This document shows positions 25,419 through 43,390 of a DNA stretch of 64,000 nucleotides, in pieces. Under the pieces are notes generated by a model. The model did no database searches. It was not told the origin of the DNA and saw nothing but the letters and a program-made list of their open reading frames with translations. Numbering within the stretch: the stretch's first letter is position 1; each line of letters opens with the position of its first letter. The DNA is from Treponemataceae bacterium (lineage in GTDB: Bacteria; Spirochaetota; Spirochaetia; Treponematales; Rectinemataceae): NCBI GenBank assembly GCA_963677895.2, contig CAXXGJ010000018.1, positions 1 through 64,000 of the forward strand, written 5' to 3'. A program made the position numbers and the translations under genes.

Positions 25419-25492
25419 CGGGCAATAGCGCAGGTGGTTAGCGTACGAGTCTGGGGGACTCGGGGTCGCCAGTTCGAGTCTGGCTTGCCCGA
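25419..25492 (+). tRNA. tRNA-Pro (GGG)
   Basis: CGGGCAA...TTGCCCG acceptor stem, CGAGT-CTGGGGG-ACTCG anticodon arm, GTTCGAG T-loop. Confidence 0.93.
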
Positions 25493-25660: not shown

Positions 25661-27157
25661 TTGAAGGCAGTTGGCTATGCGTGGCTCATTCAAACGTACC
25701 ACCTCGATGTGCTCGAGCCTGCATCAGTCTCCTATATCCATGACCGAAGCGATCGCCACAGCGTGGAACAGGATAGCCGGACCGAGTCGTATTACCCCAG
25801 GGGTTATGATCCTGGCGATGAATGGGCCGGGAACCTAACGTTTGCGCTAAAGTATGAAGGGCTCAATCTTGAAGTGTTGGCGGCGTTGTTCCCAATGCTC
25901 GATTCTTCCGCGGTCGAAGCCTATGTTCAGGAATCACCGATCGGCAAATATGCCCGGTTTGTATGGTTTTTTTATGAACTCCTAACGGAGCGAAAGCTTG
26001 GTTTTCCTGATCTCGACACGGGTAACTACCTGCCGATCCTCGATGAAGAGCGGGAATTCACCATCCCTGCGGCGTTTGCGCCGAGGGCGAAGCGGCAAAG
26101 GCTTATCGTAAACCTCCTCGGAGGGAAAGAGTATTGCCCGCGCATCAGGAAGACCGAAGCGATCGCAGCCTTCTATACCGCCGATGTCGCGGCATCGGTA
26201 CGAGCCCTTGTCGCCGCCTATCCCGATGAACTCATCGGGCGCGCTTCCCGATACCTCTACGCAAAGGAAACGAAATCTTCATTCGAGATCGAGCGGGAGA
26301 AAGCAGACACGAAGCGTACCACCAGGTTCATTGAACTCTTAAAGCGAGCGGGGCGTATCGATCCGTATGGCGAAAAGGAGCTTGCGGCGCTGCAGAACGC
26401 GATCGTTGAAGAACGATATGCCGTCAATGGGTATAGGACGAACCAAAATTATGTAGGCGAGAGCATCGGCCCGACCCGCGAACTCGTCCATTATATTCCG
26501 CCCAAGCCAGAAGCCTTGGGATCCCTTATGGAGGGATGGACTTCCTGCAGTCGGCAGATCCGGGCCAGCGCTCTAGATGCCCTCGTTCTTGCCACCGTGG
26601 CGGGATTCGGGTTCGTGTATCTCCATCCCTTCGAAGATGGCAATGGCCGCATCCATCGTTTCCTGATCCACGACGCGCTGGTCGCGACGGGATTCACGCC
26701 CGAAGGCATGATATTCCCCGTTTCCGCGGTCATGCTTCGCCGGATGAAGGAGTACGACGCTGCTTTGGAAGCGTTCTCGAAGCCGTGCATGGAACGGCTG
26801 CAATATGCGCTCGATAGCCGGGGATCGGTAACGGTGCGGGGAGAGACCAGCGGGCACTACCGCTATCCTGATCTGACACGGCAGGCGGAAGCTTTAGTTT
26901 CATTCGTACAGGAAACGGCGCAGGTGGAGTTATCGGCGGAACTGGAGTACCTCTCGCTCTTTGACCAGGCAGCCGAAGCCGTTCGTTCCCTCCTTGATAT
27001 GCCCGATCGAAAGCTTGAGCTCTTCGTCCGCCTCTGCATCCAGGGCAAGGGGAAGGTATCGGCATCGAAACGCGAGCTATTCCCTGAGATCACCGATGGA
27101 GAACTTGCCGATCTCGAAAGCGCCGTAACCCCGATCATCGCTGGCCTGAAGCGTTAG
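25661..27157 (+). CDS. Fic family protein (long type)
   Basis: Canonical HPFEDGNGRIHR motif. N-terminal GYAWL and FALKYEG. GGAGG RBS before a TTG start. Confidence 0.9.
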   Translation: MKAVGYAWLIQTYHLDVLEPASVSYIHDRSDRHSVEQDSRTESYYPRGYDPGDEWAGNLTFALKYEGLNLEVLAALFPMLDSSAVEAYVQESPIGKYARFVWFFYELLTERKLGFPDLDTGNYLPILDEEREFTIPAAFAPRAKRQRLIVNLLGGKEYCPRIRKTEAIAAFYTADVAASVRALVAAYPDELIGRASRYLYAKETKSSFEIEREKADTKRTTRFIELLKRAGRIDPYGEKELAALQNAIVEERYAVNGYRTNQNYVGESIGPTRELVHYIPPKPEALGSLMEGWTSCSRQIRASALDALVLATVAGFGFVYLHPFEDGNGRIHRFLIHDALVATGFTPEGMIFPVSAVMLRRMKEYDAALEAFSKPCMERLQYALDSRGSVTVRGETSGHYRYPDLTRQAEALVSFVQETAQVELSAELEYLSLFDQAAEAVRSLLDMPDRKLELFVRLCIQGKGKVSASKRELFPEITDGELADLESAVTPIIAGLKR

Positions 27158-27570: not shown

Positions 27571-27640
27571 TCAAGGAGGAGTGGAAGGTTACGATTTCCT
27601 CTTAACTTCGGCGACAAGGTTGACCGTCTTTAAAAACACT

Positions 27641-28654
27641 TCACTCCATCGGTGAAGATACTTTGACCTCGAGGCCCCACTTCGGTGGGTACCACTGCGG
27701 GATCGGCTCTAGGCTTGGTGTATACTTCTGCTTGATGCGGGTTCGCCCCAACTTGCTCTCGATGTCCGGGTGCGCAACGCGAGCATACTTGCTAACCTCG
27801 CAGAACACGTTCTGGCAGTCGATGAGCTGAAGGCTGCGGCCCCAGAGGCTCTGGAACTTCATGCCCAGCCTCTCAAACTCGTAGCCTGCACGCTCAGCCA
27901 TGACCTGGATGATCTCGGCTTCGCTCAAGCCGTCCATGTCCTTGAAGCATTTGCTAATACCGTCCTTAGCACCGGGTCCTGCTACGACAAACTCCATCTC
28001 GGAAAAGTCGGTGAGCTCACTGTAGTTGATATCGATGGCAAACTGGAACGCGAGGAAGTCACCGAGCGACGGATAGCTACGCAGTAGCTTAAAAGCGCCA
28101 TGGAGCGAGCGTGCCTTCGTGAGCTTCTTCGGTGCCCCATCTGCCATCATGTGTTCGATGAGTCGGAGGTGATTGCGATGCTTGCGCGGACTACCGAACG
28201 CCGGCGACGGCATGATGTAGGCGGCCGAATAGACGCGCTCGCCTTTTTCAAGCAGACCATCTAGCACCTTCGCGTAGGTTTCGAACGAGAACTCACTCCA
28301 ATTCAGTTCGCCGAGCTTTGTTTGCAGGCTCTCCCATGTCTGAATCTTGTTGAAAAGCTTGAATAGGATCGTGCGGAAGAAGATTTCTTCAAGCTTCTGC
28401 GAGCCTTCATAGATCACGTGGCGGATCAGATACTGGCTCACGCGATCCGATGCTCTGTACACGTTCGTGAAGCGGTACACGCTGAGGATCGGATCCTCAG
28501 TCCATGGTGGCGTACTGCCAAGCACGCGGCGCATGAACATTTCTTGGCGTTTCGAGGCGAAGTACCAGTATGTGTCGAATACTGGTGTCGTTTTTAGTAA
28601 ACGCCCGCCCGGTAATCGGATATCGTAGGCAGCTCGCATGCTCAATCGGTCCAC
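27641..28654 (-). CDS. DNA base-hypermodification-associated protein (aGPT-Pplase clade 1 / 5-hmdU DNA kinase helical-domain family)
   Basis: YWYFASKRQEMF..R, PPWTEDPIL..YRFTNVYRASDRVSQY, LFKLFNKIQTW, YSAAYIM, LGDFLAFQFAID, AGPGAKDGI, DCQNVFCEVSKY. Family recalled from these motifs. The start may be ATG 28639. Confidence 0.75.
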   Translation of the reverse strand: MDRLSMRAAYDIRLPGGRLLKTTPVFDTYWYFASKRQEMFMRRVLGSTPPWTEDPILSVYRFTNVYRASDRVSQYLIRHVIYEGSQKLEEIFFRTILFKLFNKIQTWESLQTKLGELNWSEFSFETYAKVLDGLLEKGERVYSAAYIMPSPAFGSPRKHRNHLRLIEHMMADGAPKKLTKARSLHGAFKLLRSYPSLGDFLAFQFAIDINYSELTDFSEMEFVVAGPGAKDGISKCFKDMDGLSEAEIIQVMAERAGYEFERLGMKFQSLWGRSLQLIDCQNVFCEVSKYARVAHPDIESKLGRTRIKQKYTPSLEPIPQWYPPKWGLEVKVSSPME

Positions 28655-29187
28655 TCGCTACCCGTGTGGTTCTTACCGAACGATGCTCGGGAGTTATCCG
28701 GCTGCTTGGTACTCTTGCGTAGGTATGCCTGATGGATCCAATCCTGAACCATCATTGGGTTATCCGACCAGTTATAGATCTTCGCGAACTCGCATTTGAT
28801 ATTATCGTAGAGGCGCGGCGGAATCGTGTGCGGGTTGTATTTTGTCGGATCAGTTCGCGGATATGTAGGCAGCAAGATGCCAAGGAGGCCGGAGCGCGGG
28901 TTGTACTCCGTTTGACGAATCGATGAGCCAATCTCCCAGTCGATGTACTTCCGTTGCCATGTCTCAGCGCCAATCAGCACAACGGTCACCGAGGTGTCGC
29001 GGATGTACTCGTCGCGGATTTTCTGTCTGATGGTTTCGGTCGACAGGTTCAAGTCGATGTCGCCGTCGTTGACCGAACCCGGCACAATCGCATCAAATGC
29101 GTTCCCGAAGCGCAATTCGAAGATATTCTTGTAGTTTTCGTCGAGTGCATGGTGGTAGCTGACGAATACCTTGTGTCTGTTGCTCAT
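28642..29187 (-). CDS. TIR domain protein (ThsB-like, MTH538/DUF1863 type)
   Basis: HKVFVSYHH, IRQKIRDEYIRDTSVTVVLIG..TWQRKYIDWEI..S (catalytic Glu present), GLLGI, PPRL. Confidence 0.88.
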   Translation of the reverse strand: MSNRHKVFVSYHHALDENYKNIFELRFGNAFDAIVPGSVNDGDIDLNLSTETIRQKIRDEYIRDTSVTVVLIGAETWQRKYIDWEIGSSIRQTEYNPRSGLLGILLPTYPRTDPTKYNPHTIPPRLYDNIKCEFAKIYNWSDNPMMVQDWIHQAYLRKSTKQPDNSRASFGKNHTGSEWTD

Positions 29188-29867
29188 TGAGCACTCCTTC
29201 TAGCACTCCGACTCTTGGTGGATGATGCAACTTGTAGTGCGGACATCGTTAGTCGTTGATGTTTAGCAAACTCGAGAGGTTCTCCTTGAACCCCCCACTT
29301 CCCTTGCTGTTCTAGCCAAGCCTCGAACGCTTCGGCAAGCTCCTTTTTGAAGACGCGATGGCCCTGTGACTTGAGGCAAATATCCTCATCCGTCTTTCGA
29401 AAAGGACGGTACTGCTCTGGAATCATCGGAGCGGACTTCCCCCAGTAGACAAATTTCGTAGCGATCAATAGTCGATCAACACTTGTGTCCCAGGTTATAT
29501 TTGCCTTGTTCTGACGACCTTTTTCAAAACTATGATGAGAGTCAGCTTGGATCCAGCGTTCCCCCTCGCGCCGATAGATGTTGTCACCGTAAATCACTTT
29601 GAGGCTGCCATTAAGATTAGGCCGCTTTCGAAAGAAGCGCGGATCATTCCAGTAAGTGTTAAAATTGAGAATCTCTCCAACTTGCATCGCGTAGATAAGC
29701 CGCCCGTTGAAGGCATATCTCGTCTTTGCGCCGGTTCCGATGATCCAATCTCCCACACTCGCACTAGCACGAATTCTCGGCTTGCACGTTGCCAACGTGC
29801 AGAAGCCAAAGAAAGGGTTTGGGGCGAAGCCAAAGTCACGTGCGATGATATACGAGTATAACTTCAT
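29184..29867 (-). CDS. Nmad2 (nucleotide modification-associated domain 2) family protein
   Basis: MKLYSYIIARDFGFAPNPFFGFCTLATCKPRIR..A..GDWIIG, LIYAMQV, YWNDPRF..KRP, GDNIY, SHH, F.YWG. Confidence 0.8.
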   Translation of the reverse strand: MKLYSYIIARDFGFAPNPFFGFCTLATCKPRIRASASVGDWIIGTGAKTRYAFNGRLIYAMQVGEILNFNTYWNDPRFFRKRPNLNGSLKVIYGDNIYRREGERWIQADSHHSFEKGRQNKANITWDTSVDRLLIATKFVYWGKSAPMIPEQYRPFRKTDEDICLKSQGHRVFKKELAEAFEAWLEQQGKWGVQGEPLEFAKHQRLTMSALQVASSTKSRSARRSAQ

Positions 29868-30349
29868 CCGCAGCTATACCTATTGGCTACCCACTCCGGC
29901 GTAGTACGCGAATTCCCCGTGGCAGGGTCATCCCAATCGGTGATCTTTCCATTGATGGCGTCGATAATTCGGTCGCCTTGCCAGCCGACTACAGCCGCAT
30001 CGCCGTATTTGCGCAACTCGTCGGGAATGTCGGCGTCTGTTGCTCCTTGCGCGAAGACGCCGAGGACATTTTTCCCTTGCTCGACAGCGTACTTGATCTC
30101 CTTGTTGACCCAATCACTCTGCGCCGTATCGTGGGTAATCAGTACGACTAAAGTGCTAGCCCAGTCGATGTGTGGTTTGAGGTAATTGTTCATGATGTAA
30201 TCAGGGTCCTTCGCAGCATTCGGTTTGTCGCTATTGATTGAGCTATCTCGGACCTCCATGCCCGCATGCTTAATCAAGTCCTTAAGCTTCGGCAGAAGGT
30301 CGTCGTCCTCGTGGACGTGAGAGATGAAGATGTTCTTCGTTTCTGGCAT
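29864..30349 (-). CDS. TIR domain protein (ThsB-like, MTH538/DUF1863 type)
   Basis: NIFISHVHEDD, DSSI, ASTLVVLI...T..SDWVNKEI.YA (catalytic Glu), GK.VLGV. Confidence 0.88.
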   Translation of the reverse strand: MPETKNIFISHVHEDDDLLPKLKDLIKHAGMEVRDSSINSDKPNAAKDPDYIMNNYLKPHIDWASTLVVLITHDTAQSDWVNKEIKYAVEQGKNVLGVFAQGATDADIPDELRKYGDAAVVGWQGDRIIDAINGKITDWDDPATGNSRTTPEWVANRYSCG

Positions 30350-30606
30350 GCTTATCCCCCTATAACGCAAATATTTTGTTTCCCTGACTGCCTTCACTTA
30401 CTGCATTTTTCAAGCTGGTGGTGTTGGAATCTTTTTCTGCCAGAATTTAAAAGGTGTCAACCCACCAAGCATTCTGAGCCTCGCTTAGTAACGAAATACC
30501 CCGCGATATTACTACCTGCGCTCGAAAGTATTCCAGTTCCAGAGTAATAGACTTACTTACGACAAATTCCTTCGATTTATCCTTCTTTCAGTTCAGCTCT
30601 TTAGTA

Positions 30607-31653
30607 TTACCTCTCCTTTGATTTACACCATGCGATCCAGGATTTACCCCAGTATTGCCCTGCCCCTTTTATACTCTCCAATGCTTCGTCATGGTACCCA
30701 AGTCGCCTATAGGACTCTGCTCCTAAAACACAAAGCCATTCTTTATAGCCAGTTGGTATCATGGTCGGCGCTCTTGAAAGAACCTTTTGTACTTGCTTTG
30801 CATCAATAGCGTGCCCTAAATGCAGGGTCGCGAGTACGATAAATTGCCATACTTTTATCCATTCGGCATATGGCAGTCTCAGGTCAGTATGATTTATCTC
30901 CCTATCCTCTTTCGGCGTTGGGTTACTTAGGAATTCAGAGTGATAGCCATAGATGTGTAATGAATCACTAATATGGTTGTACGATCCGATTTCAATACCC
31001 AACCATCCTGCGAATATCTCTTGAATTGTGGTAAATTGAATAAAATTATATGGCATTCCCCAAATCAGGTCATTGGAACGCATCACGTGTAGCCACTCAA
31101 GCTTGTCGTTTCGGACTAACAGATGGCTAGCTATACTACAAGGAATATCTTTCGATTTCTCAGTAGTCCCTGGAAGATCTTTTTCTGTATCCCAATATTG
31201 TAGAACTACTTGCCGTGAATCAGGTTTGTTCTTGAGAATCTGAACTGCAGCATGCAGCTGGTCTGTATTTTGCTTATCGCACCAATTTCCGTGCCGGAGA
31301 GAACGACCGATGCTGGAGCCAATTCTAGGTACGAACCCCAGGCGATAGCCATAAGCTCCGTGCAAATAATTATCTCCACCATCGGCATACTTGGTCATTC
31401 TTGAATTCCATGCCGATAAAAAGGATAAATCATTAGCGCCAGATAGAATCCATACTACTTCTACGATCGCGAAGGCAGGGTTTATTTCTCGTGCAAATAC
31501 AATCCGTTGCCTTGGATCATCTATCTCGATGGCTACATGGAGAAGTTCTGTTGTGGTTCCATTTCGACTAGTTTGTACGCTGCCTTGTTTCTTGAGTAGA
31601 TCGATCGCTTGAGTCCAAGCATCGTCTGCCGATCTTGCCGTAATGGAAATCAT
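30607..31653 (-). CDS. Thymidylate synthase-like protein (possible dUMP hydroxymethylase)
   Basis: SRNG.T.E, NPAFAIVEVVWILSG, GAYG.R, SRQ, DIPC (catalytic Cys), MRSNDL.WGMPYN, SLHIY, plus a ~95-aa C-terminal extension. Confidence 0.85.
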   Translation of the reverse strand: MISITARSADDAWTQAIDLLKKQGSVQTSRNGTTTELLHVAIEIDDPRQRIVFAREINPAFAIVEVVWILSGANDLSFLSAWNSRMTKYADGGDNYLHGAYGYRLGFVPRIGSSIGRSLRHGNWCDKQNTDQLHAAVQILKNKPDSRQVVLQYWDTEKDLPGTTEKSKDIPCSIASHLLVRNDKLEWLHVMRSNDLIWGMPYNFIQFTTIQEIFAGWLGIEIGSYNHISDSLHIYGYHSEFLSNPTPKEDREINHTDLRLPYAEWIKVWQFIVLATLHLGHAIDAKQVQKVLSRAPTMIPTGYKEWLCVLGAESYRRLGYHDEALESIKGAGQYWGKSWIAWCKSKER

Positions 31654-32267
31654 TGTTTTTCCATATTTTGTAATATCTTGACGGCTTGTTTAAAAGTTTT
31701 ATCTTCTGATCCATTGTTATCAAGTATATGAATCTCAATTCCTTTAACTTGTTCTAGATCAATAATTTCACGATAGAATAATTCCAGTTTTGTATGTCGT
31801 TCCTTGTCGCTTTCGTAGGGTTTCAAGCTTGTTTTTCGAGACAGGAAGAAATATACCGGAGGTGGCAAAGTGTCCCAAAACGGCCATTCTAGCTTGACTA
31901 GCGACAATGCTCTATCCTTGGATAAGTGTAGGCGACTATAAGCATAAGTGCTCCACCATGACCTATCCAACAGAATACTACCTCCTCTTTCAAAGTGATC
32001 GCGAAAACTGGTCTCGATTTGATCAATATGCGCGGCCATATGAAGAACCTGCATCGCAGTCTCATTCGGCTTACGAAGATAAGTTAGCTCACCGTGGTGG
32101 ATAGCATAGATGAGCTGGCCAAGTGTTCCGATATCATGCCCCGGAAATGCTGCTCGCATGATGTTGGTTTCGGGAAATTGGACCTGTAAATATTTTTCTA
32201 ATTGACTAATCAAAGAGCTTTTCCCTGATCCATCTGCACCTTCAAAGACAAGAAACTTATTTTTCAT
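31650..32267 (-). CDS. Thymidylate kinase-like P-loop kinase
   Basis: FLVFEGADGSGKSS, FPG, LLDRSWWSTYAY. Confidence 0.85.
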   Translation of the reverse strand: MKNKFLVFEGADGSGKSSLISQLEKYLQVQFPETNIMRAAFPGHDIGTLGQLIYAIHHGELTYLRKPNETAMQVLHMAAHIDQIETSFRDHFERGGSILLDRSWWSTYAYSRLHLSKDRALSLVKLEWPFWDTLPPPVYFFLSRKTSLKPYESDKERHTKLELFYREIIDLEQVKGIEIHILDNNGSEDKTFKQAVKILQNMEKQ

Positions 32268-32293
32268 AGGTTACCTCTCGACTTATTAGGTTT

Positions 32294-34321
32294 TTAATTC
32301 GGATAACAATTCTGGAGCCCCATTAATATTAGTTCAATTATTCGCTCTGGTGACCGCGTTGTCGCAAGCTCGTGGTTCTCTTCTTTCGTCAGTCCATTCT
32401 TTAGCCCTACAAGGCCGCATGTTTTCAGCTCATCGACGATGGTGTCATATTCATCCCATGGTTCGCCCTGCTTTTGATACAGCAACCGCAATTCTTCCGA
32501 GAATGGGACGGCTTTCTGATAATTCCAGTGTAGTTCGGGCCGAATATGCCCCTCCAGCGCATCGAAGATAAGCCGAGCACAGCCACCGAACGTACCAATA
32601 AGGTAGACTGGACGCTTGGCGCGTATTGACAGAAGCGCCTCCTCTAATACACCGGGCATCCTTCCGCGATAGCCATCGCCAGTGGGACCAAGTCGTCCCC
32701 CAACCACAACGCGCGCAGCGACATCCTCAGTTTGCTGTTGCCGCATGATGGTGAGGCCACGTGACCAGGCGAAGCGACGCATTGCGGAATTGACCAGTAT
32801 TTCTACTGACGGCGTTGTGATAAACGCAGCATCCAACGTCTCATCGAGACCATTCGGTCTCGCGCAACGACGTACATCAACCAGCGCGCTTCCGCTGTTA
32901 AGGCGGGCAATATCAACGGGGGTGCTCGCGTTTGGCCACGCAAGATATGCAACCAGTTCTGCAGGCTGCCCGGCCTCCGGCGTTGGCTCGCCGCGAAGCT
33001 GCTCGATGGTCGGGTCGTATAGAAGGTCCGCAAGCCTGACAGTGTAACCGGCGGAACCGAGGTGGCCGCCATAGGCCAGGCGCACCCCAGCAACTAAAAG
33101 ATAACGTGAGATATCGAGTAAGACCTCGTCGAGGTGAGGCTTACGTAGACCGAAACACGGAAGGTCTTCGGCTTCCGAAATTGAAAGAGCTACTAGAAGC
33201 TGCTGGGCACGCAGATTATGAATTTTCGCATAACGCTCAAGCGGTGTCTCAACGGTCACACCCGTGAGGGAAAGAACTGCGAGTTCCTCACTCCCAAGCG
33301 GAGGATCGGGATAAAGCACGGGCCTTGCTTTGTCCCGATGTACTAACGTCACGAGCTCAGGCCCAGAAGGAAGGATGTCGTCGCCCGGGCGTGCGCGCTT
33401 GCGAAGCATCTCTTCCGCGTACATATAGCGCAGGGTCTCTCGAAGCAGTGAATCGATAACGGCCCGAGGATCATCCTTCCAGCGCAGTACGGGCACGTTG
33501 CCAGAGTAAGGAAAACGTCGGATCTCTCGCTCCTGAATCGCATCGACAATCACAAACGGCCTCTGGTAGCGTTTCGCGAAGAGGACCTCTCTGCGACACC
33601 AGGAGCGTGACGAATAGGCATCCGTCACGACGGCGAGCAGGGCGGAATCGGCCACGCCGGCTTCGATCGCTTTGGCGAATCGAGATCCGGACGCAATGTC
33701 TCCGCTGTCGAACCATGTCTTCTCCGGCTGGTTCGCCTTCAAATACTCGAGCAGCGTGTTCACGACACTGTGTGGTTTCCCTGCGTCGATCTTCGCATGG
33801 CTAAGAAAAATGGTCATCGAAGGGGCGTCCTCATCGACCGAATGTGGTCGAAGGAGGCGGATCAGAAGGTGTAGCATCCTTCGCGCGACTAACTTTTTGC
33901 GCTCTGCATCATTGGGCTCATCGAACGCGCGAAGGAAGTTCAGATTCTTGAGGCGCACGTCGATGGGCCACGCAAAACTACTGAGGCTCACCGGAAGGAA
34001 GCGACGATCGGGTGACTCGTTGCAGAGATCACGGAGCTTGACACCATAGTCTCCCCACGTGATGCCACCGTCTCGCCCCGATCTCGCATAATTGACGAGT
34101 TGATCGTCGGCCAAGAGCACGACCAGAACGCGATCTGCCTCCTCGCTGAGTCTCGGCTCTGGCGGCATAAACGTGTAATCGTTTGGCGTGAAGATGGTTG
34201 GAATGCGGAGCCCTGGGGCTGCTGCGTCGTCATTGATGATGTCGCGCAGATACTCGGCCATTGCGGCAGCTTCGGCCGACGCCGGGTGGAACTCGAATTG
34301 AACGAGGAGTGGGTACTTCAT
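32294..34321 (-). CDS. TIR-SLOG fusion protein with an additional N-terminal alpha/beta domain
   Basis: Central TIR (IFLSHAK.D, WFDSGDI..G, YSSRSWCRREV). C-terminal SLOG cluster-2-like region (VALSISE, RYLL..G..LAYGG, LT.MR, ARVVVGG, Y.G.MPGVLEE, P.YLIG.FGG, NGLT.EEN..L). Confidence 0.82.
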   Translation of the reverse strand: MKYPLLVQFEFHPASAEAAAMAEYLRDIINDDAAAPGLRIPTIFTPNDYTFMPPEPRLSEEADRVLVVLLADDQLVNYARSGRDGGITWGDYGVKLRDLCNESPDRRFLPVSLSSFAWPIDVRLKNLNFLRAFDEPNDAERKKLVARRMLHLLIRLLRPHSVDEDAPSMTIFLSHAKIDAGKPHSVVNTLLEYLKANQPEKTWFDSGDIASGSRFAKAIEAGVADSALLAVVTDAYSSRSWCRREVLFAKRYQRPFVIVDAIQEREIRRFPYSGNVPVLRWKDDPRAVIDSLLRETLRYMYAEEMLRKRARPGDDILPSGPELVTLVHRDKARPVLYPDPPLGSEELAVLSLTGVTVETPLERYAKIHNLRAQQLLVALSISEAEDLPCFGLRKPHLDEVLLDISRYLLVAGVRLAYGGHLGSAGYTVRLADLLYDPTIEQLRGEPTPEAGQPAELVAYLAWPNASTPVDIARLNSGSALVDVRRCARPNGLDETLDAAFITTPSVEILVNSAMRRFAWSRGLTIMRQQQTEDVAARVVVGGRLGPTGDGYRGRMPGVLEEALLSIRAKRPVYLIGTFGGCARLIFDALEGHIRPELHWNYQKAVPFSEELRLLYQKQGEPWDEYDTIVDELKTCGLVGLKNGLTKEENHELATTRSPERIIELILMGLQNCYPN

Positions 34322-34500
34322 ATCGTCACCACCTCTATCTGTCCAGTCACCGCCGTTGCGACAAGTGCTACGTGGCGTTCCTTGAGCAGCGCAATGCTAC
34401 GCTCAGCGGCAATTTGTACAGTATCGAGCTTTGCAGTCTCGCGGGCAATGTGGTCGGCGATCTGCCAGATTAGGTTCGCGAAGTAGTTATGGTCAGGCAT
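34318..34500 (-). pseudogene. Chimeric hsdM'::'hsdS deletion remnant (60 aa)
   Basis: The first 16 aa (MPDHNYFANLIWQIAD) look like an HsdM N-terminus. The remainder (HIARETAKLD...ERSIALLKERHVALVATAVTGQIEV) looks like an HsdS C-terminal conserved helix. Confidence 0.75.
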
Positions 34501-35650: not shown

Positions 35651-36832
35651 ATGGAGTTGATGTACGAGCAGGTGCGGCTAGTCAAGCCGGGATTCGATGA
35701 CGAACTCACAGGTTTGATCATTGATCTCGATTACCTCCGGAGAGGACAGCCCGGGGGATCGACGCCTACGTGGCTCTTCGTCCAGCTTAAAGGAATCTTC
35801 CACATGCTGGAAGGGCTTGGTTCTGCCAGAATCGAAGGGAATCGCACCACAATCGCGGAAGCGGCAGAAGACCGCATCGCGGGAGCAACTACGTTTTTCG
35901 GAACCGATGAAAGGATCAAGGAATACCTGAATGTAGAACTTGCACTCGATTTCCTTGAAACCATTCCGCCCGACAGCCTCGCCACTGGTGCTGTATGTCG
36001 TGAACTTCATAAACGGGTGGTCGCCGGGCTTTCTGCCGGGAGGGGGGGAGAGGGCTCGTCAAATCCTGGGGAATGGCGTGTGGGATCAGTAAATATCACA
36101 GGTTCCCGTCACCGTCCATCTGCGGCAGGTGATGTACCAGCCCTTATGCAGGAGCTGTTTTCGTTTCTGGCAACGCCTGACGATCCTCGTTATGACTTGA
36201 TCAAGCTGGCGCTCGCCCATCACCGCTTCGCGTGGATACATCCGTTCGACAACGGTAACGGCAGGACGGTTCGCCTTTTCACCTATGGTCTTCTCGTCCG
36301 CGCCGGATTTCGGGTGGCAGGAATAGGGCAGAATGGACGAATCCTCCAGCCGACAGCGATATTCTGCTCGGATCGGGCTGCCTACTATGCGGCGCTCGAC
36401 AGGGCCGATGACGGCGACGATGACGGTCTTCTCGCCTGGTGTCTATATGTACTTCGCGGACTGAAATTGGAAATCGAGAAGATCGACCGATTGTCCGATT
36501 ACTCCTTCCTGCGTGATCACCTGCTGCTCCCCTCTATCAACGAGCTGGCCGAGCGGGGCGGGATCAATAGTCGTGAAAGAAGTATCCTCCTCGGGGTAGC
36601 GAGGAGCGGGAAGCCGATCGCCAATTCCGATGCCCGAGCGTTCTTCGACGAAAAAGTTTCGGTTACCCATACGTCACGCCTCATCGCAAGCCTTCGTGAA
36701 CGAAAGCTCTTGGTTCCGATATCCGAGGGGGCTCGTACCTATACACTCGGCTTTTCAAAAAGCCCCTTGTTGCGTACGTTGATACGCGCGCTGGATAAAG
36801 AAGGCTTCCTTCCATTCCAAGGCGAAACCTGA
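35651..36832 (+). CDS. Fic family protein with an N-terminal inhibitory motif and C-terminal wHTH-like region
   Basis: HPFDNGNGRTVR catalytic motif and SARIEGN, matching the (S/T)xxxE(G/N) motif. Confidence 0.9.
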   Translation: MELMYEQVRLVKPGFDDELTGLIIDLDYLRRGQPGGSTPTWLFVQLKGIFHMLEGLGSARIEGNRTTIAEAAEDRIAGATTFFGTDERIKEYLNVELALDFLETIPPDSLATGAVCRELHKRVVAGLSAGRGGEGSSNPGEWRVGSVNITGSRHRPSAAGDVPALMQELFSFLATPDDPRYDLIKLALAHHRFAWIHPFDNGNGRTVRLFTYGLLVRAGFRVAGIGQNGRILQPTAIFCSDRAAYYAALDRADDGDDDGLLAWCLYVLRGLKLEIEKIDRLSDYSFLRDHLLLPSINELAERGGINSRERSILLGVARSGKPIANSDARAFFDEKVSVTHTSRLIASLRERKLLVPISEGARTYTLGFSKSPLLRTLIRALDKEGFLPFQGET

Positions 36833-36990: not shown

Positions 36991-39900
36991 TTAGATTTCA
37001 AATCCACCCTTGATTATGAACCGCTTTAGAAGGTCGTGGATCTTGATGTTGATCTTGATCGGGGCGATGGTCGATCCTTCCAAGCCTTCAAAATATGCCT
37101 TGGCTTTTACTTTATCGATCGTATCCTTGAGTTCGTCGAAGCGACCGAATTCGTTGATGTTCGCTTCGGTAATACCCGAATTCATCATGGCGCGCAGCTT
37201 TGCCTCGTCCAAGCCCAAGATCCCGGAAAGCGTGCTGATCTGGTCGTTTTTCGCCGTGCATTGATATTCGGTGACGTAGTCGCGAAAGGTCTTCCCGCTT
37301 TCCATGACCGCGGAGCCGCTTTGCACATCGTGGAGAAAGATATTGGCGTATTTTTGTTCTTCAGTGGTCAAATACGCGAAAGACTTATGCAAATCGTCCA
37401 GGGTCTGCTGCCTCTGTTCTTCCTCGATGCCAGCCTGTTTCAATGCTTTAAGATACTTATCAAACCGCGAGTTCATGTAGTCGGCATCGATTCTCCCGGT
37501 ATCGATTTCGGTCAAATACCCGTCGATATCATAGGGAACGTCGGGCATTACGCCCCCACCACTCCCGCCATTACCGCTGGCGAGCTCTTTGTAGCGGAGC
37601 GCCAGAACGAGGTAAGCGTTCTCGTCGAACTGCATATCGATGATTTTCTTTGGTTTGCCAGGGCCATCGCTGAATTCGTAGCGCGACTGACTCCAGACAA
37701 AGCCCTGGATTTTCGCCGCCTCGAGATGGAGGCTCATTTCCTTGAAGAGCTTGGCGAATTTGCCTCGCTCCGCGCCATCATCCGGCAATTTCGAAATATC
37801 TGGAACACCCGCTCGGGCGAATAATTCCGCGATCTCCTGGTAGAGGGAGTTCATTGCGCGCAAATTTAAATCAAGTCGATCCACGAACAGCCCGAGCGGC
37901 CTGTCCCCCGAATAGAGCTTGACTGCCCTGTTGATGTTCTCTTCCATGGTGTGCGGTTTGCGGTAATAGCGGATAGTCCCGAAGGGTTTGTCCGGGCCAA
38001 AGAGACGATTGGTGCGGGAGAAGGCCTGGATGATATTCTCGTATTGGAACAGCTTGTCCAGGTATAGTGTGTTGAGCCACATGGAATCGAAACCGGTGAG
38101 CATCTGATCCACCACGATCAGAAGATCGATTTGTTTCTCCGGACTCCGCTCCAGACGGAGATATGGCTCCTTGTGGGCGAGGCGGGTGGCGATATCTTTC
38201 TTGAATTTCGCGTGGGTGGGTATGGTAAAATCTTGCTCGTATCGCGCATTATAATCCTCAATGATTTCGATAAGACCGTCTTTCTTGAATTTTACACCGC
38301 CGTTATTGTCGATATTGGGATCAAAGAGGGCGGTGAATTTCAGGTTGGTTTTCTTACTTTTAATGAGGCGGTAATATTCGATGGCCTCAGCTATGCTCGT
38401 GGTAGCGAAGAGCGCGTGGAATTTTCCGTTCTGGCTCAGGGTGAGCCAGTTATCCAGAATATCTTCCACTACCTTTTCACGATGCTCGGTTCGCTCGTAT
38501 TGGGCCTGTGTCAGGTAATCCTCGATGCCTTTGACCCTACTGCCGTCGCCTGCGATGGATCCGGCCATGGGTGTGTCTTTCATGTATCGGTTAAAGACGA
38601 TTTTCTTTTTGGGATCGGCAAAGGCTTCAGCCTCATCGCTGGCTTTCGCCTGTTCCAAGGCCACCGCGACGCGCAGATCCTTGTCTTTATAGGTAAGAAC
38701 CTTATAAGGGTCGAAACCCAGGACGTTTTTATCCCGGATACCGTCAGCGATGCTGTAGCGATGGAGTTCGTCACCAAATATCGAGGACGTGGTATTGAGC
38801 TTTTTCTGGTTCTCTTCGTGGATGGGGGTGCCGGTAAAGCCAAAGAGGAGGGCGCGAGGAAAGGTGGCTTTGATTCTTCTCAGCATTTTCCCAAAGGTAT
38901 CACGGTGTGCCTCGTCGACGATAATGACGATACGTTTCGCCTGCATCAGGGCGAGGTCGTGGGCGTTGATCCCGCCTTCTTCGTCCTTGATATTGCTCAT
39001 CTTCTGGATCGAAGTGACGATTAAAGTGTCAGCTGGGCGCGTACTTTTCAGCTTGGTGATCAGGGTGGCGGTGTTCTCCGTGGCCTGAACCTCCTCGCTC
39101 TCCTCGGCGAAGCCACGGTACTCGTTCAGGGACTGGGTGCCGAGCTCGATCCGGTCCATGAGGAAGATGACCTTGTCGGCGTCCTTGGAATTGGCGATGA
39201 GCTGGGCCGACTTGAAGCTGGTCATGGTTTTGCCTGAGCCGGTGGTATGCCAGACATAGCCGCCCCGCCCCTTGTGGGCGCTCCAGTCAATCTTGGAAAC
39301 TCGGTCGGATATGGCGTTGGCCGCGTAATACTGATAGCTTCGCATCACTTTAAGGATGCCGTCTGAGCCGTCTGCCACGGTGTAAAAGCCTATGAGCTGA
39401 TGAGCCATGGGGATGGAAAGGAGGGAAGAGGCGATGTCCTTCCAATCGTTGATTGGCTCGTTGTTGAAGTCGGCCCAGCGGAAATAGTAATCAGTGTTGA
39501 ACCTGCCTTCGGGACCGGGGTTCGCGAAGTAGCGGGTTTCTTCAGGCTGCATGGCTACAAAAATCTGGACGAGGGAAAAGAGGCTCGTGAAAATACCCTC
39601 GTCCGAATACTTTTCGATCTGATGGAAGGCTTGGCTCACAGGCGTGCCGCTTTTTTTAAGCTCGATATGGATGACAGGCATGCCGTTTATAAGAAGCATA
39701 AGGTCGCCCCGACGCTCGCTTAAAATCTTCGACCTGCTTTTAAATTGAGGTTGGCGGGCAATTTGATAGCGGCTTTGCCCGGCGGCGATCTCCCGACGAT
39801 CGTAGATTTTTAGACTTACTTCCTTACCGAAATGGAGGCGGTCTTCCGGGTTGTCGCGGGTGATCGAGACGGTTTTCCCGTTGATGAAGCCATTGAGTTT

Positions 39901-40131
39901 GAGGGGAGTGCGCAGGGTAGCGATTTGCTCCATGATCTGCCGCATCTCGCCCTCGGTGAGGGGATAATCGCCCAGGCGGTCTATGCCGCGGTTGTTGTCG
40001 AAGAGGATGGTCGCCCAGTTCTTCAAAAGGTTCTTTTCGGTAGGGTAATTTATGACCGCTGTTTCCCAACCCTTGTGGGAGAGGATCTCTATAAGCGCGT
40101 TTTCAAAGTCGGCTTCATTGGTAAAGGTCAT
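36991..40131 (-). CDS. hsdR: Type I restriction enzyme R subunit
   Basis: DLMLLINGMPVIHIELK nuclease motif, QAF.QI..Y, WHTTGSGKT, DEAHR, FTGTP, MLTGFD, QAFSRTNR. Confidence 0.95.
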   Translation of the reverse strand: MTFTNEADFENALIEILSHKGWETAVINYPTEKNLLKNWATILFDNNRGIDRLGDYPLTEGEMRQIMEQIATLRTPLKLNGFINGKTVSITRDNPEDRLHFGKEVSLKIYDRREIAAGQSRYQIARQPQFKSRSKILSERRGDLMLLINGMPVIHIELKKSGTPVSQAFHQIEKYSDEGIFTSLFSLVQIFVAMQPEETRYFANPGPEGRFNTDYYFRWADFNNEPINDWKDIASSLLSIPMAHQLIGFYTVADGSDGILKVMRSYQYYAANAISDRVSKIDWSAHKGRGGYVWHTTGSGKTMTSFKSAQLIANSKDADKVIFLMDRIELGTQSLNEYRGFAEESEEVQATENTATLITKLKSTRPADTLIVTSIQKMSNIKDEEGGINAHDLALMQAKRIVIIVDEAHRDTFGKMLRRIKATFPRALLFGFTGTPIHEENQKKLNTTSSIFGDELHRYSIADGIRDKNVLGFDPYKVLTYKDKDLRVAVALEQAKASDEAEAFADPKKKIVFNRYMKDTPMAGSIAGDGSRVKGIEDYLTQAQYERTEHREKVVEDILDNWLTLSQNGKFHALFATTSIAEAIEYYRLIKSKKTNLKFTALFDPNIDNNGGVKFKKDGLIEIIEDYNARYEQDFTIPTHAKFKKDIATRLAHKEPYLRLERSPEKQIDLLIVVDQMLTGFDSMWLNTLYLDKLFQYENIIQAFSRTNRLFGPDKPFGTIRYYRKPHTMEENINRAVKLYSGDRPLGLFVDRLDLNLRAMNSLYQEIAELFARAGVPDISKLPDDGAERGKFAKLFKEMSLHLEAAKIQGFVWSQSRYEFSDGPGKPKKIIDMQFDENAYLVLALRYKELASGNGGSGGGVMPDVPYDIDGYLTEIDTGRIDADYMNSRFDKYLKALKQAGIEEEQRQQTLDDLHKSFAYLTTEEQKYANIFLHDVQSGSAVMESGKTFRDYVTEYQCTAKNDQISTLSGILGLDEAKLRAMMNSGITEANINEFGRFDELKDTIDKVKAKAYFEGLEGSTIAPIKINIKIHDLLKRFIIKGGFEI

Positions 40132-41141: not shown

Positions 41142-41170
41142 ATAGCCAGCTCCTTTTTCATTATGCGTTT

Positions 41171-42187: not shown

Positions 42188-42207
42188 GTTTCTCTTCCTC
42201 CTTTTTC

Positions 42208-43389: not shown

Positions 43390-43390
43390 A

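Follow-up and report, generated by a model that had tools for sequence, protein, structure and literature searches.

A seven-gene TIR–Nmad2 locus, probably of the DS-4 defence family, with a TIR-SLOG gene in a Treponemataceae bacterium

DS-4 (working id NTTI) is an Escherichia coli system reported as protective by DefensePredictor (Science 2026, PMC13092281), where it is listed as defensive and replicated, and where it gave a defensive score on its own in E. coli MG1655. Its phenotype is weak and concerns one phage: the sole Table S7 row gives phage Lambda, with a −log EOP of 0.93 (about 8.5-fold) and smaller plaques. Table S8 labels the DS-4 TIR protein 'NDT' by HHpred, with a match to the MilB CMP hydrolase (4JEM; PMC13092281).

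MilA and MilB are the CMP 5-hydroxymethylase and the hmCMP N-glycosidase of the mildiomycin pathway. TIR-STING and TIR-SAVED proteins are effectors that join a sensor domain to a TIR NADase. Phage thymidine-hypermodification pathways are reportedly the subject of work by Lee et al. in PNAS in 2018. According to the accessible part of Lee et al. (NAR 2021, PMC8989533), such hypermodification combines a thymidylate synthase (TS)-family enzyme, a P-loop kinase and an HhH-fold protein of the aGPT-Pplase family. Type I Thoeris pairs ThsB with the SIR2-SLOG protein ThsA. The available text of Yirmiya et al. (2025, bioRxiv 10.64898/2025.12.03.692087) describes type III as several TIR proteins with a SLOG effector, and types VI–VIII as a TIR protein with DUF6650, SLATT or a CMP hydrolase; SLATT is reported there as an effector of the TIR signal, and the CMP hydrolase as the effector of type VIII. 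That text contains no mention of Nmad, thymidylate, MazG or hmdU.

Here we describe a cluster of seven intact, contiguous open reading frames (ORFs; 27641..34321, minus strand) in a 64,000-nucleotide (nt) stretch of DNA from a Treponemataceae bacterium (hereafter referred to as the window). The cluster combines TIR and SLOG proteins with pyrimidine-type enzymes, and it is probably a defence locus of the DS-4 family.

Organization and genomic setting of the locus

On the minus strand, the genes run in the order TIR-SLOG, kinase, TS-like enzyme, intergenic gap, TIRa, Nmad2, TIRb and HMUDK_hel. A sequence-only reading had given this order and these domains, and ORF calling and Pfam searches recovered all of them at the same positions. 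The ATGA overlaps that it claimed for the kinase/TS, TIRa/Nmad2 and Nmad2/TIRb junctions can all be read directly in the sequence. The TIR-SLOG/kinase junction measures 26 nt, and the TIRb/HMUDK_hel junction 2 nt, given an HMUDK_hel start at the ATG at 28639. The gap between the TS-like gene and TIRa, previously put at about 260 nt, is 257 nt (30350..30606; GC 0.41) when measured from the TIRa ATG at 30349, which is preceded by GGGGA; the TIRa ORF reaches to a GTG at 30397, from which the distance is 209 nt. This gap may hold an internal promoter, but promoter-like sites in the region are not enriched (11, versus 9.0 ± 3.4 in shuffled sequences), and an Rfam search of the 257 nt gave no match at E values up to 0.1. 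A terminator-like hairpin, recognized by a consensus match only, lies at the end of the last gene (27639..27657, minus strand). Judged from the sequence, seven contiguous intact genes with E values down to 1e-114 are far beyond chance.

Upstream of the cluster, a 60-codon ORF (34318..34500, minus strand) overlaps the TIR-SLOG start through an ATGA. BLASTP identifies it as a chimeric relic of an HsdM N terminus and an HsdS C terminus: residues 4–24 correspond to the HsdM N terminus (E 5e-4) and residues 18–57 to the HsdS C terminus (E 3e-6) of L011, another Nmad2 locus; a Pfam search of this ORF gave no match. Pfam searches also located a type I restriction–modification (R-M) operon encoding HsdM, HsdS, a YhcG nuclease, RhuM and HsdR (36991..46021, minus strand), a Fic gene between this operon and the cluster (35651..36832, plus strand) and a second Fic gene (25661..27157, plus strand), bearing out the earlier assignment of the cluster to a defence island. 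Nmad2 occurs in 2 of 41 related genomes, this one included, and in neither of the two same-genus genomes searched. This patchy distribution and the defence-island location are in keeping with a horizontally acquired defence locus.

Proteins encoded by the locus

TIR-SLOG (675 residues; 32294..34321, minus strand) matches Pfam TIR_2 (1.8e-10) and SLOG LD_cluster2 (6.1e-61) and comprises an N-terminal part to which no family could be assigned (residues ~1–165), a TIR domain (171–255) and a SLOG cluster-2 domain (373–652). For the N-terminal part, a protein atlas returned only unnamed and TIR-containing clusters (scores 0.90–0.94), which we take as a lead only. An alignment of 22 orthologues shows invariant F172, S174, W241, E245, G418-G419, G541-G542 and E560-E561, the glutamate at the catalytic position (E245) being present in 22 of 22 sequences. 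We propose that this protein is a signal-read effector. TIR-STING and TIR-SAVED likewise fuse a ligand-binding domain to a TIR domain with a catalytic glutamate, whereas the ligand domain of TIR-SLOG is SLOG cluster 2 and is accompanied by the unassigned N-terminal domain.

TIRa (161 residues; 29864..30349, minus strand) and TIRb (181 residues; 28642..29187, minus strand) are ThsB-type TIR proteins (Pfam ThsB_TIR, 1.3e-19 and 8.8e-17, respectively), and TIRa also matches the PADLOC ThsB model PDLC00418 (1.1e-52). In sequence searches of the PDB, TIRa matched TIR proteins (8wcf and SARM1/TIR-1 domains), its WVNKEI motif aligning to WVHKEL of SARM1/TIR-1, and the IDWEI motif of TIRb aligned to VRYEI of BcThsB (6lhy) across the glutamate motif. 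We take the aligned positions to be the catalytic glutamates of SARM1 and BcThsB. TIRa E84 is invariant in 40 of 40 orthologues and TIRb E85 is at least 97% conserved among 42 sequences, so that, with E245 of TIR-SLOG, all three TIR domains conserve the glutamate, as had been claimed.

Nmad2 (227 residues; 29184..29867, minus strand; Pfam Nmad2, 5.8e-69) has 2,253 homologues at E < 1e-5 and no relative by sequence among solved structures. In comparisons of its structure model (pLDDT 81.4), the 17 best VIA matches (Z 5.6–7.6) are all YTH, ASCH, EVE/THYN1, McrB-N, VcaM4I or DrmA-type proteins, with every Z score below 8, a level that according to the tool a common arrangement can produce. Foldseek gave no match at E ≤ 0.001, its best hit being an ASCH protein (E 0.014, probability 0.93). 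The fold is thus predicted to be PUA-like (ASCH/YTH/EVE), of the base-reader kind. A predicted complex of TIRa with Nmad2 scored 0.82, against 0.18 for the best of three controls, with at least 86% of contacts shared between runs and partner pLDDT values of at least 88. Of 157 solved complexes, 116 attain the complex-score mark, as do 2 of 215 mismatched pairs; this benchmark is only roughly applicable because our own alignments were used as input. The predicted TIRa interface on Nmad2 takes in loop 84–93, which is disordered in the monomer model, and the invariant S110-H111-H112-S113. Since Nmad2 lacks a solved sequence relative, this prediction is unlikely to reflect a memorized structure, and the modelling supports binding of TIRa to Nmad2.

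The TS-like enzyme (348 residues; 30607..31653, minus strand) matches Pfam Thymidylat_synt (2.3e-26) and phrog_5131 (3.7e-65), and its best solved relative is MilA (5b6d, E 5.4e-19). It retains the catalytic Cys172; across 15 sequences, conservation of C172, R192, S193, D195, H233 and Y235 is 97% or higher. The residue that aligns with N177 of E. coli TS is likewise Asn, whereas that of MilA is Asp in the alignment to 5b6d; this column, which is N in 13 and D in 2 of the 15 sequences, is presumably the site that sets uracil versus cytosine specificity. The kinase (205 residues; 31650..32267, minus strand) is a P-loop protein of the thymidylate-kinase family (Pfam Thymidylate_kin, 1.4e-9; 38.4 bits, cut-off 27) that scores 48 bits with TIGR00041, below the cut-off of 83; P-loop residues G10, G15 and K16 and the D101-R102 pair are at least 97% conserved across 11 sequences. 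HMUDK_hel (332 residues; 27641..28639, minus strand; PF18723, 1.8e-114), which we take to be the family formerly named aGPT-Pplase1 (clade 1), could alternatively start at a GTG at 28654 to give 337 residues. Its structure model (pLDDT 93.9) has the fold of HhH-GPD glycosylases, with QNG1 (Z 10.2) and the PaMx11 5-PmdU glycinyltransferase (Z 9.9) as neighbours, and all of 38 sequences share C280 and E281. Homologues occur in 494 phage records (22–37% identity), mostly of ViI-like, M6-like and Bacillus phages. Because six loci (L019, L032, L033, L035, L060 and L065) encode the kinase and HMUDK_hel as a fusion, the kinase appears to be a partner of HMUDK_hel, and these fusions suggest, at the sequence level, something other than a plain nucleotide kinase. 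Conserved residues in the three TIR domains, the SLOG domain, the TS-like enzyme, the kinase and HMUDK_hel are in keeping with the mechanism proposed below.

Recurrence and relation to described systems

Among the species genomes scanned, at least 521 Nmad2 matches were confirmed; the 80 nearest were analysed as loci, 58 of them with full flanks. The neighbourhood search found the TIR and modification-type genes together in many other genomes. Nmad2 is immediately preceded by a TIR gene in 77 of the 80 loci (full-flank loci: 56 of 58); by gene context, TIRa is a fixed partner of Nmad2. The TS-like enzyme and MazG-MazG_C are alternatives across the full-flank loci, and one or the other is present in 54 of 58, a presence that pure signalling leaves unexplained. 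HMUDK_hel alone occurs in 41 of these loci, UDG alone in 13 and both in none. The TS-like enzyme is accompanied by HMUDK_hel in 14 of 14 loci and the kinase by the TS-like enzyme in 8 of 8, counts that may miss divergent forms, as both profiles were built from few sequences. TIR-SLOG is found in 32 of the 58 loci (30 without and 2 with an uncharacterized small protein, c7), c7 without TIR-SLOG in 18 and neither in 8, whereas SLATT occurs in 5 of the 80 and never together with TIR-SLOG. TIR-SLOG, c7 and SLATT thus behave as interchangeable effector-like genes; the loci are related to one another, so Fisher p-values for this alternation overstate its significance. Of the 80 loci, 6 carry dCTP-deaminase-like genes and 15 have type I R-M genes nearby, and in L005 and L011 the block is embedded inside an R-M operon.

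The locus had been put forward as undescribed, which does not stand: the five genes of its core (TS-like enzyme, kinase, HMUDK_hel, TIR and Nmad2) are those that make up DS-4 in the available parts of PMC13092281. In both, the five genes form one operon, the kinase is of the P-loop nucleotide type, a ThsB-type TIR gene lies immediately upstream of and overlaps Nmad2, and the Nmad2 proteins, compared by eye, have the motifs RDFGFAPNPF, CTLATCKPRIR, GDNIY and DSHHS in common. The window copy differs in gene order, in its additional 675-residue TIR-SLOG protein and second TIR, and in a kinase of the Thymidylate_kin family where DS-4 has a match to T4 dNMP kinase (1DEK). PADLOC (v2.0.0), in which Nmad2, HMUDK_hel and the TS-like enzyme have no models, named only the two small TIR proteins (as ThsB), so that no named system is matched by the whole locus.

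The window resembles Thoeris in its ThsB-type TIR proteins with the catalytic glutamate and a SLOG-bearing partner, and in sister loci that exchange TIR-SLOG for SLATT or for a small protein with a weak DUF6650-like lead. However, its SLOG domain is fused to TIR instead of SIR2, and the type III NCBIfam model ThcB4 gives 15.2 bits, its cut-off being 220. Pfam, PADLOC and NCBIfam searches found no SIR2, Macro or caspase effector at the locus, in agreement with the sequence-only reading, and it is therefore not a Thoeris of type I, II or IV; a CMP-hydrolase effector is absent as well. Nmad2, HMUDK_hel and the TS-like enzyme occur in none of the Thoeris types described in the accessible sources. 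Phage thymidine hypermodification, as far as the available description goes, likewise combines a TS-family enzyme, a P-loop kinase and an HhH-fold aGPT-Pplase-family protein, but its characterized amino-acid:DNA transferase belongs to clade 2, the window kinase lies outside the 5-HMUDK Pfam families, and the window genes sit beside TIR genes in a bacterial defence island and not in a phage. Pfam found no clade-2 aGPT-Pplase, PLP, radical-SAM or FAD tailoring gene in the window.

Alternative readings and a proposed mechanism

The TS-like enzyme and kinase might instead make a 5-hydroxymethyl-type deoxyuridine nucleotide that enters replicating phage DNA or depletes a nucleotide pool, with HMUDK_hel and Nmad2 acting on the modified base and without a second messenger. 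Given the kinship of the TS-like enzyme to MilA and the 'NDT' label of the DS-4 TIR in Table S8 (PMC13092281), the TIR-like and SLOG proteins could then be nucleotide N-glycosidases (MilB-, LOG- or QNG1-like) and not makers or readers of an NAD+ signal. The likeness of HMUDK_hel to QNG1, a nucleotide glycosylase, and to the glycinyltransferase, its mutual exclusion with UDG and the dCTP-deaminase-like genes fit such nucleotide poisoning or DNA marking, as do, on the available accounts, the function of DS-4 without a SLOG effector and the CMP-hydrolase effector of type VIII Thoeris. We nevertheless consider it unlikely. In contrast to the label of the DS-4 TIR, TIRa matches TIR proteins and not MilB in the PDB sequence search, with the catalytic glutamate aligned; TIR-SLOG, c7 and SLATT alternate as signal-read effectors would; and without a tight trigger, incorporation would also affect host DNA. 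Lambda, the one phage that DS-4 restricted, moreover has ordinary thymine in its DNA and is not known to carry uracil, 5-hmdU or a hypermodified base there.

The restriction of Lambda by DS-4, as tabulated, also argues against one of the earlier models (model c), in which HMUDK_hel and Nmad2 form a dedicated sensor of phages with uracil, 5-hmdU or hypermodified-thymine DNA that escape type I R-M, and trigger the TIR proteins. The modelled reader-type fold of Nmad2 and glycosylase fold of HMUDK_hel, the phage homologues of HMUDK_hel, its replacement by UDG and the R-M genes near or around some loci suit this model. A sensor would not need its own TS-like enzyme, kinase or MazG, however, and such phages are a small minority, yet Nmad2 loci are widespread; we regard it as decidedly improbable. 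It is very improbable that the genes form a Dnd/Dpd-like module of an R-M locus in which a thymine derivative marks host DNA as self. The hsdM::hsdS relic directly adjoining the first gene, the loci adjoining or embedded in type I R-M genes and the homology to phage hypermodification enzymes point that way, but the window lacks the clade-2 aGPT-Pplase, PLP or radical-SAM tailoring genes, TIR, SLOG and SLATT are partners characteristic of abortive-infection immunity, R-M genes are near a minority of the loci (15 of 80), and DS-4 alone scored as defensive in MG1655 (PMC13092281, as available).

The reading that we prefer, to which we give about an even chance, is an intact, horizontally acquired locus of the DS-4/TIR–Nmad2 family in which Thoeris-like signalling is gated by pyrimidine chemistry. 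TIRa and Nmad2 would form a heterodimer in which Nmad2, with a predicted PUA-like fold of a type that recognizes modified bases, is the ligand sensor. The TS-like enzyme, with its catalytic Cys and uracil-type Asn, would together with the kinase and HMUDK_hel, these two acting jointly as a split kinase–HMUDK_hel enzyme, make or process a 5-substituted deoxyuridine species that, as a free nucleotide or within replicating DNA, either serves as the ligand or gates it. Upon infection, TIRa, and TIRb next to HMUDK_hel, would convert NAD+ into an ADP-ribose-derived signal through their catalytic glutamates; the SLOG domain of the 675-residue protein would bind this signal, its own TIR domain would become active as an NADase, and this activity would abort infection. 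The case for the TIR-to-SLOG signalling arm is evenly balanced, and the specific role given here to the pyrimidine enzymes is doubtful. The comparative data favour a mix of model (c) with model (a), in which a modified deoxyuridine nucleotide acts as or gates a second messenger; in this mix, recognition of an unusual pyrimidine would gate the TIR signalling. The window is best read as an extended version of DS-4 to which a Thoeris-like effector arm has been added; because DS-4 is, in the available data, defensive without TIR-SLOG, the SLOG arm would be an add-on and the minimal system must work without it.

A seven-gene defence-type locus and its published relative

On the minus strand, from position 34321 to position 27641, seven open reading frames (ORFs) lie head to tail, with Pfam E-values ranging from 1.4e-9 to 1.8e-114. 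The first encodes TIR-SLOG, a 675-residue protein with TIR_2 and SLOG cluster 2 domains, and is followed by the genes for a 205-residue kinase (Thymidylate_kin, 1.4e-9), a 348-residue thymidylate synthase (TS)-like enzyme (Thymidylat_synt, 2.3e-26), TIRa (161–177 residues, ThsB_TIR), Nmad2 (227 residues, PF18753), TIRb (181 residues, ThsB_TIR) and HMUDK_hel (332–337 residues, PF18723, 1.8e-114), a member of aGPT-Pplase clade 1. These Pfam names stem from the group of Iyer et al. and Burroughs et al. The organization proposed by the sequence-only reading was borne out: direct reading of the sequence showed ATGA overlaps at the kinase/TS, TIRa/Nmad2 and Nmad2/TIRb junctions, the single long gap, put at about 260 nt, measures 257 nt, and alignments show the catalytic-position Glu to be present and conserved in all three TIR domains (E84 in TIRa, E85 in TIRb and E245 in TIR-SLOG). 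The claimed Fic and type I restriction–modification (R-M) neighbourhood was recovered with Pfam as two plus-strand Fic genes, one on each side of the cluster (25661–27157 and 35651–36832), and one type I R-M operon. The cluster is a real, intact, defence-type locus. A prophage or phage-modification cassette was considered and rejected, as the annotated flanks contain no phage structural genes and PHROGs gave no match to Nmad2 or TIR-SLOG.

Among the seven proteins, PADLOC named only the two small TIR proteins, as ThsB (best 1.1e-52). Its candidate families gave weak matches to the kinase (PDC-M51B) and to the TIR region of TIR-SLOG (PDC-S66), and it had no match for the TS-like enzyme, Nmad2 or HMUDK_hel. 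The NCBIfam matches to dTMP kinase and thymidylate synthase were all below threshold.

The locus had been put forward as undescribed. This does not hold for its core, because the same gene set constitutes DS-4 (working identifier NTTI), an Escherichia coli system of DefensePredictor (Science 2026, PMC13092281), which has been published with weak experimental backing and without a mechanism. That report lists 5-hydroxymethyluracil kinase and thymidylate synthase among the domains newly validated in defence, and shows predicted systems with aGPT-Pplase, MazG, MazG-C, dUTPase and an NMAD domain. According to its Table S8, DS-4 consists of a TS (361 residues), a dNMP kinase (185 residues), HMUDK_hel (340 residues), a TIR protein (163 residues) and Nmad2 (220 residues), the TIR being ThsB for DefenseFinder and ‘NDT’/MilB-like for HHpred. 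DS-4 is marked defensive in Tables S6 and S7, where its sole Table S7 row concerns phage Lambda (−log EOP 0.93, smaller plaques), and section 7 of the report holds no further dissection of it. The window shares with DS-4 the TS-like enzyme (with its conserved Cys172), a small P-loop kinase whose gene overlaps the TS start by ATGA, HMUDK_hel, and a ThsB-type TIR immediately 5′ of Nmad2. By contrast, the window kinase belongs to Thymidylate_kin, whereas that of DS-4 is of another P-loop subfamily and matched 1DEK. The phage protection on record is that of DS-4 itself. The family is published and weakly validated, and the window form adds TIR-SLOG, a second TIR and the TS/kinase cassette. Our literature search turned up only unrelated papers for Nmad2 and nothing joining aGPT-Pplase with TIR, and the TIR-SLOG paper that it retrieved is silent on this locus; the main text of Payne et al. 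2024 (bioRxiv 10.1101/2024.01.29.577857) mentions none of Nmad, MazG, SLOG, thymidylate and hmdU.

Gene content of related Nmad2 loci and the history of the window copy

Nmad2 has 2,253 homologues at E<1e-5, the best 120 of which are 64–96% identical and spread across phyla. A pattern scan with one genome per species yielded at least 552 stretches with at least 521 confirmed Nmad2 matches, and the best 80 of these loci were retained together with flanks of up to 10 kb on each side. ORFs were called mechanically and searched using profiles derived from the seven window proteins; the remaining ORFs were clustered and the cluster representatives named with Pfam. Module counts refer to the 58 of the best 80 loci whose flanks reach 7 kb or more in both directions; they describe nearest relatives that are not mutually independent, and the TS and kinase profiles, built from 15 and 11 sequences, may let divergent forms escape.

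The comparison reveals a fixed TIR–Nmad2 pair accompanied by three variable slots. A TIR gene lies directly upstream of Nmad2 in 56 of the 58 full-flank loci (77 of the best 80). The first slot holds a nucleotide-pool enzyme, which is either MazG–MazG_C (42/58) or a TS-like enzyme (14/58) with or without the kinase; TS occurs alone in 12 loci, MazG alone in 40, both in 2 and neither in 4. The Thymidylate_kin-type kinase was found with TS only (8/8), and TS is accompanied by HMUDK_hel in 14 of 14 loci. The second slot holds a base-flipping-type protein, HMUDK_hel in 41 of the 58 loci or a uracil-DNA glycosylase (UDG)-like protein in 13, with no locus containing both and four containing neither; UDG always occurs with MazG_C. 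The association of TIR and modification-type genes proposed for the window recurs in many other genomes. In a metagenome scan, the TS-like protein had one relative, 49% identical, which is encoded downstream of HMUDK_hel on a contig of 1.8 kb.

The third slot holds an effector-like gene, which is TIR-SLOG, c7 or SLATT. SLOG is present in 32 of the 58 loci; among the 45 SLOG loci in the best 80, the SLOG ORF is fused to TIR in 23, and in the other 22 it has no TIR match and usually adjoins a separate TIR ORF. The protein c7 (about 165–215 residues; for example, L008:8866–9510 and L055:8977–9480) was found in 20 of the 58 loci. It has no Pfam match; a weak lead from a protein atlas (0.85) points to DUF6650, the effector family of type VI Thoeris. 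SLOG occurs without c7 in 30 loci, c7 without SLOG in 18, both in 2 and neither in 8. In the best 80 loci, c7 occurs 22 times, in 10 cases just 5′ of TIRa and in 2 cases together with SLOG. A SLATT_3+SLATT_1 membrane protein is encoded near TIR–Nmad2 in 5 of the 80 loci (L040:10700–11626, L057, L062, L069 and L074), none of which contains SLOG.

Other genes were seen beside the pair. Nmad2 has a radical-SAM/SPASM gene in its vicinity in L021 (10639–11715, directly downstream), L022, L024 and L052; a 717-residue protein adjoining TIR–Nmad2 in L061 (10824–12977) combines a calcineurin-like phosphoesterase with a weak thymidylate synthase-like region (E 3.7e-4); and a Fic_N+Fic+SoFic-like_C gene lies near Nmad2 in 3 of the best 80 loci (L004, L025 and L074).

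The closest loci (L001–L018) share the order TIR-SLOG, TIRa, Nmad2, MazG or TS, TIRb, HMUDK_hel. In the window, no gene separates Nmad2 from TIRb, and the kinase–TS pair comes after TIR-SLOG and before TIRa, from which the 257-nt gap separates it. The GC content of the kinase, TS and gap (30350–32267) is 0.40–0.44, against 0.49–0.56 in the other five genes, and this low GC suggests that the kinase–TS pair may have arrived as a separate cassette. The gap matched no Rfam family at E up to 0.1. Across the region, 11 promoter-like sites were counted, no excess over the 9.0 ± 3.4 of shuffles, and 4 terminator-like sites, below the 8.3 ± 2.6 of shuffles.

Fifteen of the best 80 loci have type I R-M genes within 7 kb, and in L005 and L011 the genes TIR-SLOG, TIRa, Nmad2, MazG, TIRb and HMUDK_hel form a block between hsdM–RhuM and hsdS. 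A 60-codon minus-strand ORF in the window (34318–34500), which shares an ATGA overlap with the TIR-SLOG start, is an HsdM/HsdS chimera: in BLASTP against the R-M proteins of L011, its first part matches the HsdM N terminus (E 5e-4) and its last part the HsdS C terminus (E 3e-6), with no match to the window’s own HsdS. Neither this ORF nor an 89-residue upstream ORF matched anything in Pfam. The 60-codon ORF is apparently a remnant left by the deletion of a type I R-M unit, and it echoes the R-M-embedded layout of L005 and L011. Inside the window’s own type I R-M operon, between hsdS (GC 0.385) and hsdR, lie minus-strand genes for RhuM and a YhcG/DUF1016 PD-(D/E)XK nuclease (40128–42187). Farther away, the segment 10001–14000 has a low GC content (0.42–0.46) and several minus-strand ORFs.

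Of 41 related genomes, the window’s own (92.8% complete, 39 contigs) included, two contain Nmad2; in the two genomes of the same genus none was found. The defence island is bordered, immediately ahead of the first Fic gene, by a plus-strand tRNA-Pro (GGG) gene (25419–25492). No repeat of its 3′ end occurs across the island as far as 47.5 kb, and the Pfam-scanned ORFs include no integrase family, which leaves a mobile-element boundary unsupported.

Predicted structures and conserved residues

The Nmad2 model has a pLDDT of 81.4, with loop 83–89 below 50. Foldseek found no match at E≤0.001, the best being ASCH (E 0.014). The 17 best VIA rows, whose Z values of 5.6–7.6 lie below the 8 under which, by the tool’s own warning, a match can reflect a common arrangement, are all YTH, ASCH, EVE/THYN1, McrB-N, VcaM4I or DrmA N-terminal domains. 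These are PUA-like modules, several of them solved with m6A RNA or 5mC DNA. The invariant residues R10, D11, C23, C28, D95, Y98, S110-H111-H112-S113 and D127 point to a putative pocket or active site.

A model of the TIRa–Nmad2 complex scored 0.82, against 0.18 for the best of three controls; of 157 solved complexes 116 attain this mark, as do 2 of 215 mismatched pairs, a rough calibration since own alignments were used. Contacts agree by at least 86% between runs, and the partners have pLDDT values of at least 88. In the predicted interface, TIRa residues 112–119 face Nmad2 residues 87–91, and the TIRa tail (156–157) faces H111 in the invariant SHHS motif. The modelling supports binding of TIRa to Nmad2.

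In the TS-like enzyme, the catalytic Cys172, the RSxD motif, H233 and Y235 are conserved among 15 sequences. Its best solved relative in a PDB sequence search is the CMP 5-hydroxymethylase MilA (5.4e-19), and an Asn faces the MilA Asp in the alignment, with Asn occupying this column in 13 of 15 homologues and Asp in the other two. By eye, the window PYNF motif can be matched to the E. coli thymidylate synthase motif around N177. The Asn in place of the MilA Asp, together with this correspondence, suggests a substrate of the uracil type, and the sequence cannot tell a methyl from a hydroxymethyl product. The kinase has a conserved P-loop and DR motif and is fused to the N terminus of HMUDK_hel in six of the best 80 loci.

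The HMUDK_hel model (pLDDT 93.9, pTM 0.91) matched in VIA the queuosine-monophosphate glycosylase QNG1/DUF2419 (Z 10.2, root mean square deviation 5.8 Å over 239 residues) and the PaMx11 5-PmdU glycinyltransferase (Z 9.9, 4.1 Å over 219 residues), followed by about 20 HhH-GPD DNA glycosylases (Z 4.8–8.0); Foldseek ranked the PaMx11 enzyme first (E 0.039). Cys280-Glu281, counted from the ATG at 28639, is invariant in 38 of 38 sequences, and a Cys and a neighbouring Glu are reported as essential in clade-2 aGPT-Pplase enzymes (PMC8989533). A profile search with HMUDK_hel did not reach the solved PaMx11 transferase by sequence, which makes any equivalence of the Cys-Glu pair with the clade-2 residues tentative, and PDB sequence searches returned no relative of HMUDK_hel or Nmad2. 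The phage thymidine-hypermodification pathway uses a clade-2 aGPT-Pplase (an amino-acid:DNA transferase); the window protein matches clade 1, keeps the invariant Cys-Glu pair and resembles the PaMx11 transferase in fold. The window kinase matches Thymidylate_kin and AAA_28 only, with no 5-HMUDK family, and Pfam finds no PLP, radical-SAM or FAD tailoring genes in the cluster.

Candidate mechanism and significance

The window resembles type I Thoeris in its ThsB TIR with an aligned catalytic Glu, but none of the seven proteins contains SIR2, and SLOG is fused to TIR. With three TIR domains and one SLOG domain, it also resembles, at the domain level only, type III Thoeris, which is described as comprising several TIR proteins and a SLOG effector in a study that also describes SLATT as an effector of TIR-made cADPR (Yirmiya et al. 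2025, bioRxiv 10.64898/2025.12.03.692087). Among the NCBIfam type III models, ThcB4 alone matches at E≤0.01, with 15.2 bits against a cut-off of 220. On the grounds of these two effector precedents, we favour the reading that the window encodes signalling of a Thoeris-like kind: TIRa, possibly along with TIRb, would make a signal that TIR-SLOG would read, leading to NAD+ depletion, and Nmad2 and the pyrimidine enzymes would set the timing of signal synthesis. Whatever this reading adds to the domain identities, the conserved residues, the co-occurrence of genes and the predicted TIRa–Nmad2 interface is inferred.

The main alternative dispenses with a second messenger: the TIR-like, SLOG and HhH proteins would all work as nucleotide N-glycosidases, their substrate being a modified pyrimidine that the TS-like enzyme produces. 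The likeness of that enzyme to MilA and of the DS-4 TIR to MilB favours this explanation, as do the fold match of HMUDK_hel to QNG1 and the lack of a SLOG effector in DS-4. A more specific form of Thoeris-like signalling, which we regard as a long shot, is that TS and kinase supply a 5-substituted uracil nucleotide, and that base exchange on NAD+ by TIRa–Nmad2 yields a pyrimidine-ADPR messenger read by the SLOG domain of TIR-SLOG. If true, such a messenger would be of a kind not yet seen, with the defence system making a private substrate for its own signal synthesis, and would be beyond the reach of phage sponges against known cADPR isomers.

DS-4-type systems bridge two hitherto separate fields, TIR immune signalling and phage thymidine-hypermodification enzymology. 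Their experimental support is a weak phenotype with one phage, and the window provides a complete, richer member. It makes testable predictions: a TIRa–Nmad2 heterodimer, Nmad2 as a modified-base reader, kinase and HMUDK_hel as one enzyme, interchangeable effectors (TIR-SLOG, SLATT and the small protein c7) and interchangeable chemistry modules (TS/MazG and HMUDK_hel/UDG). The Thoeris-like signalling reading, if true, would show how nucleotide chemistry is coupled to TIR immunity in bacteria, and might bring to light an immune signal, or a means of detecting phage replication, that is new.
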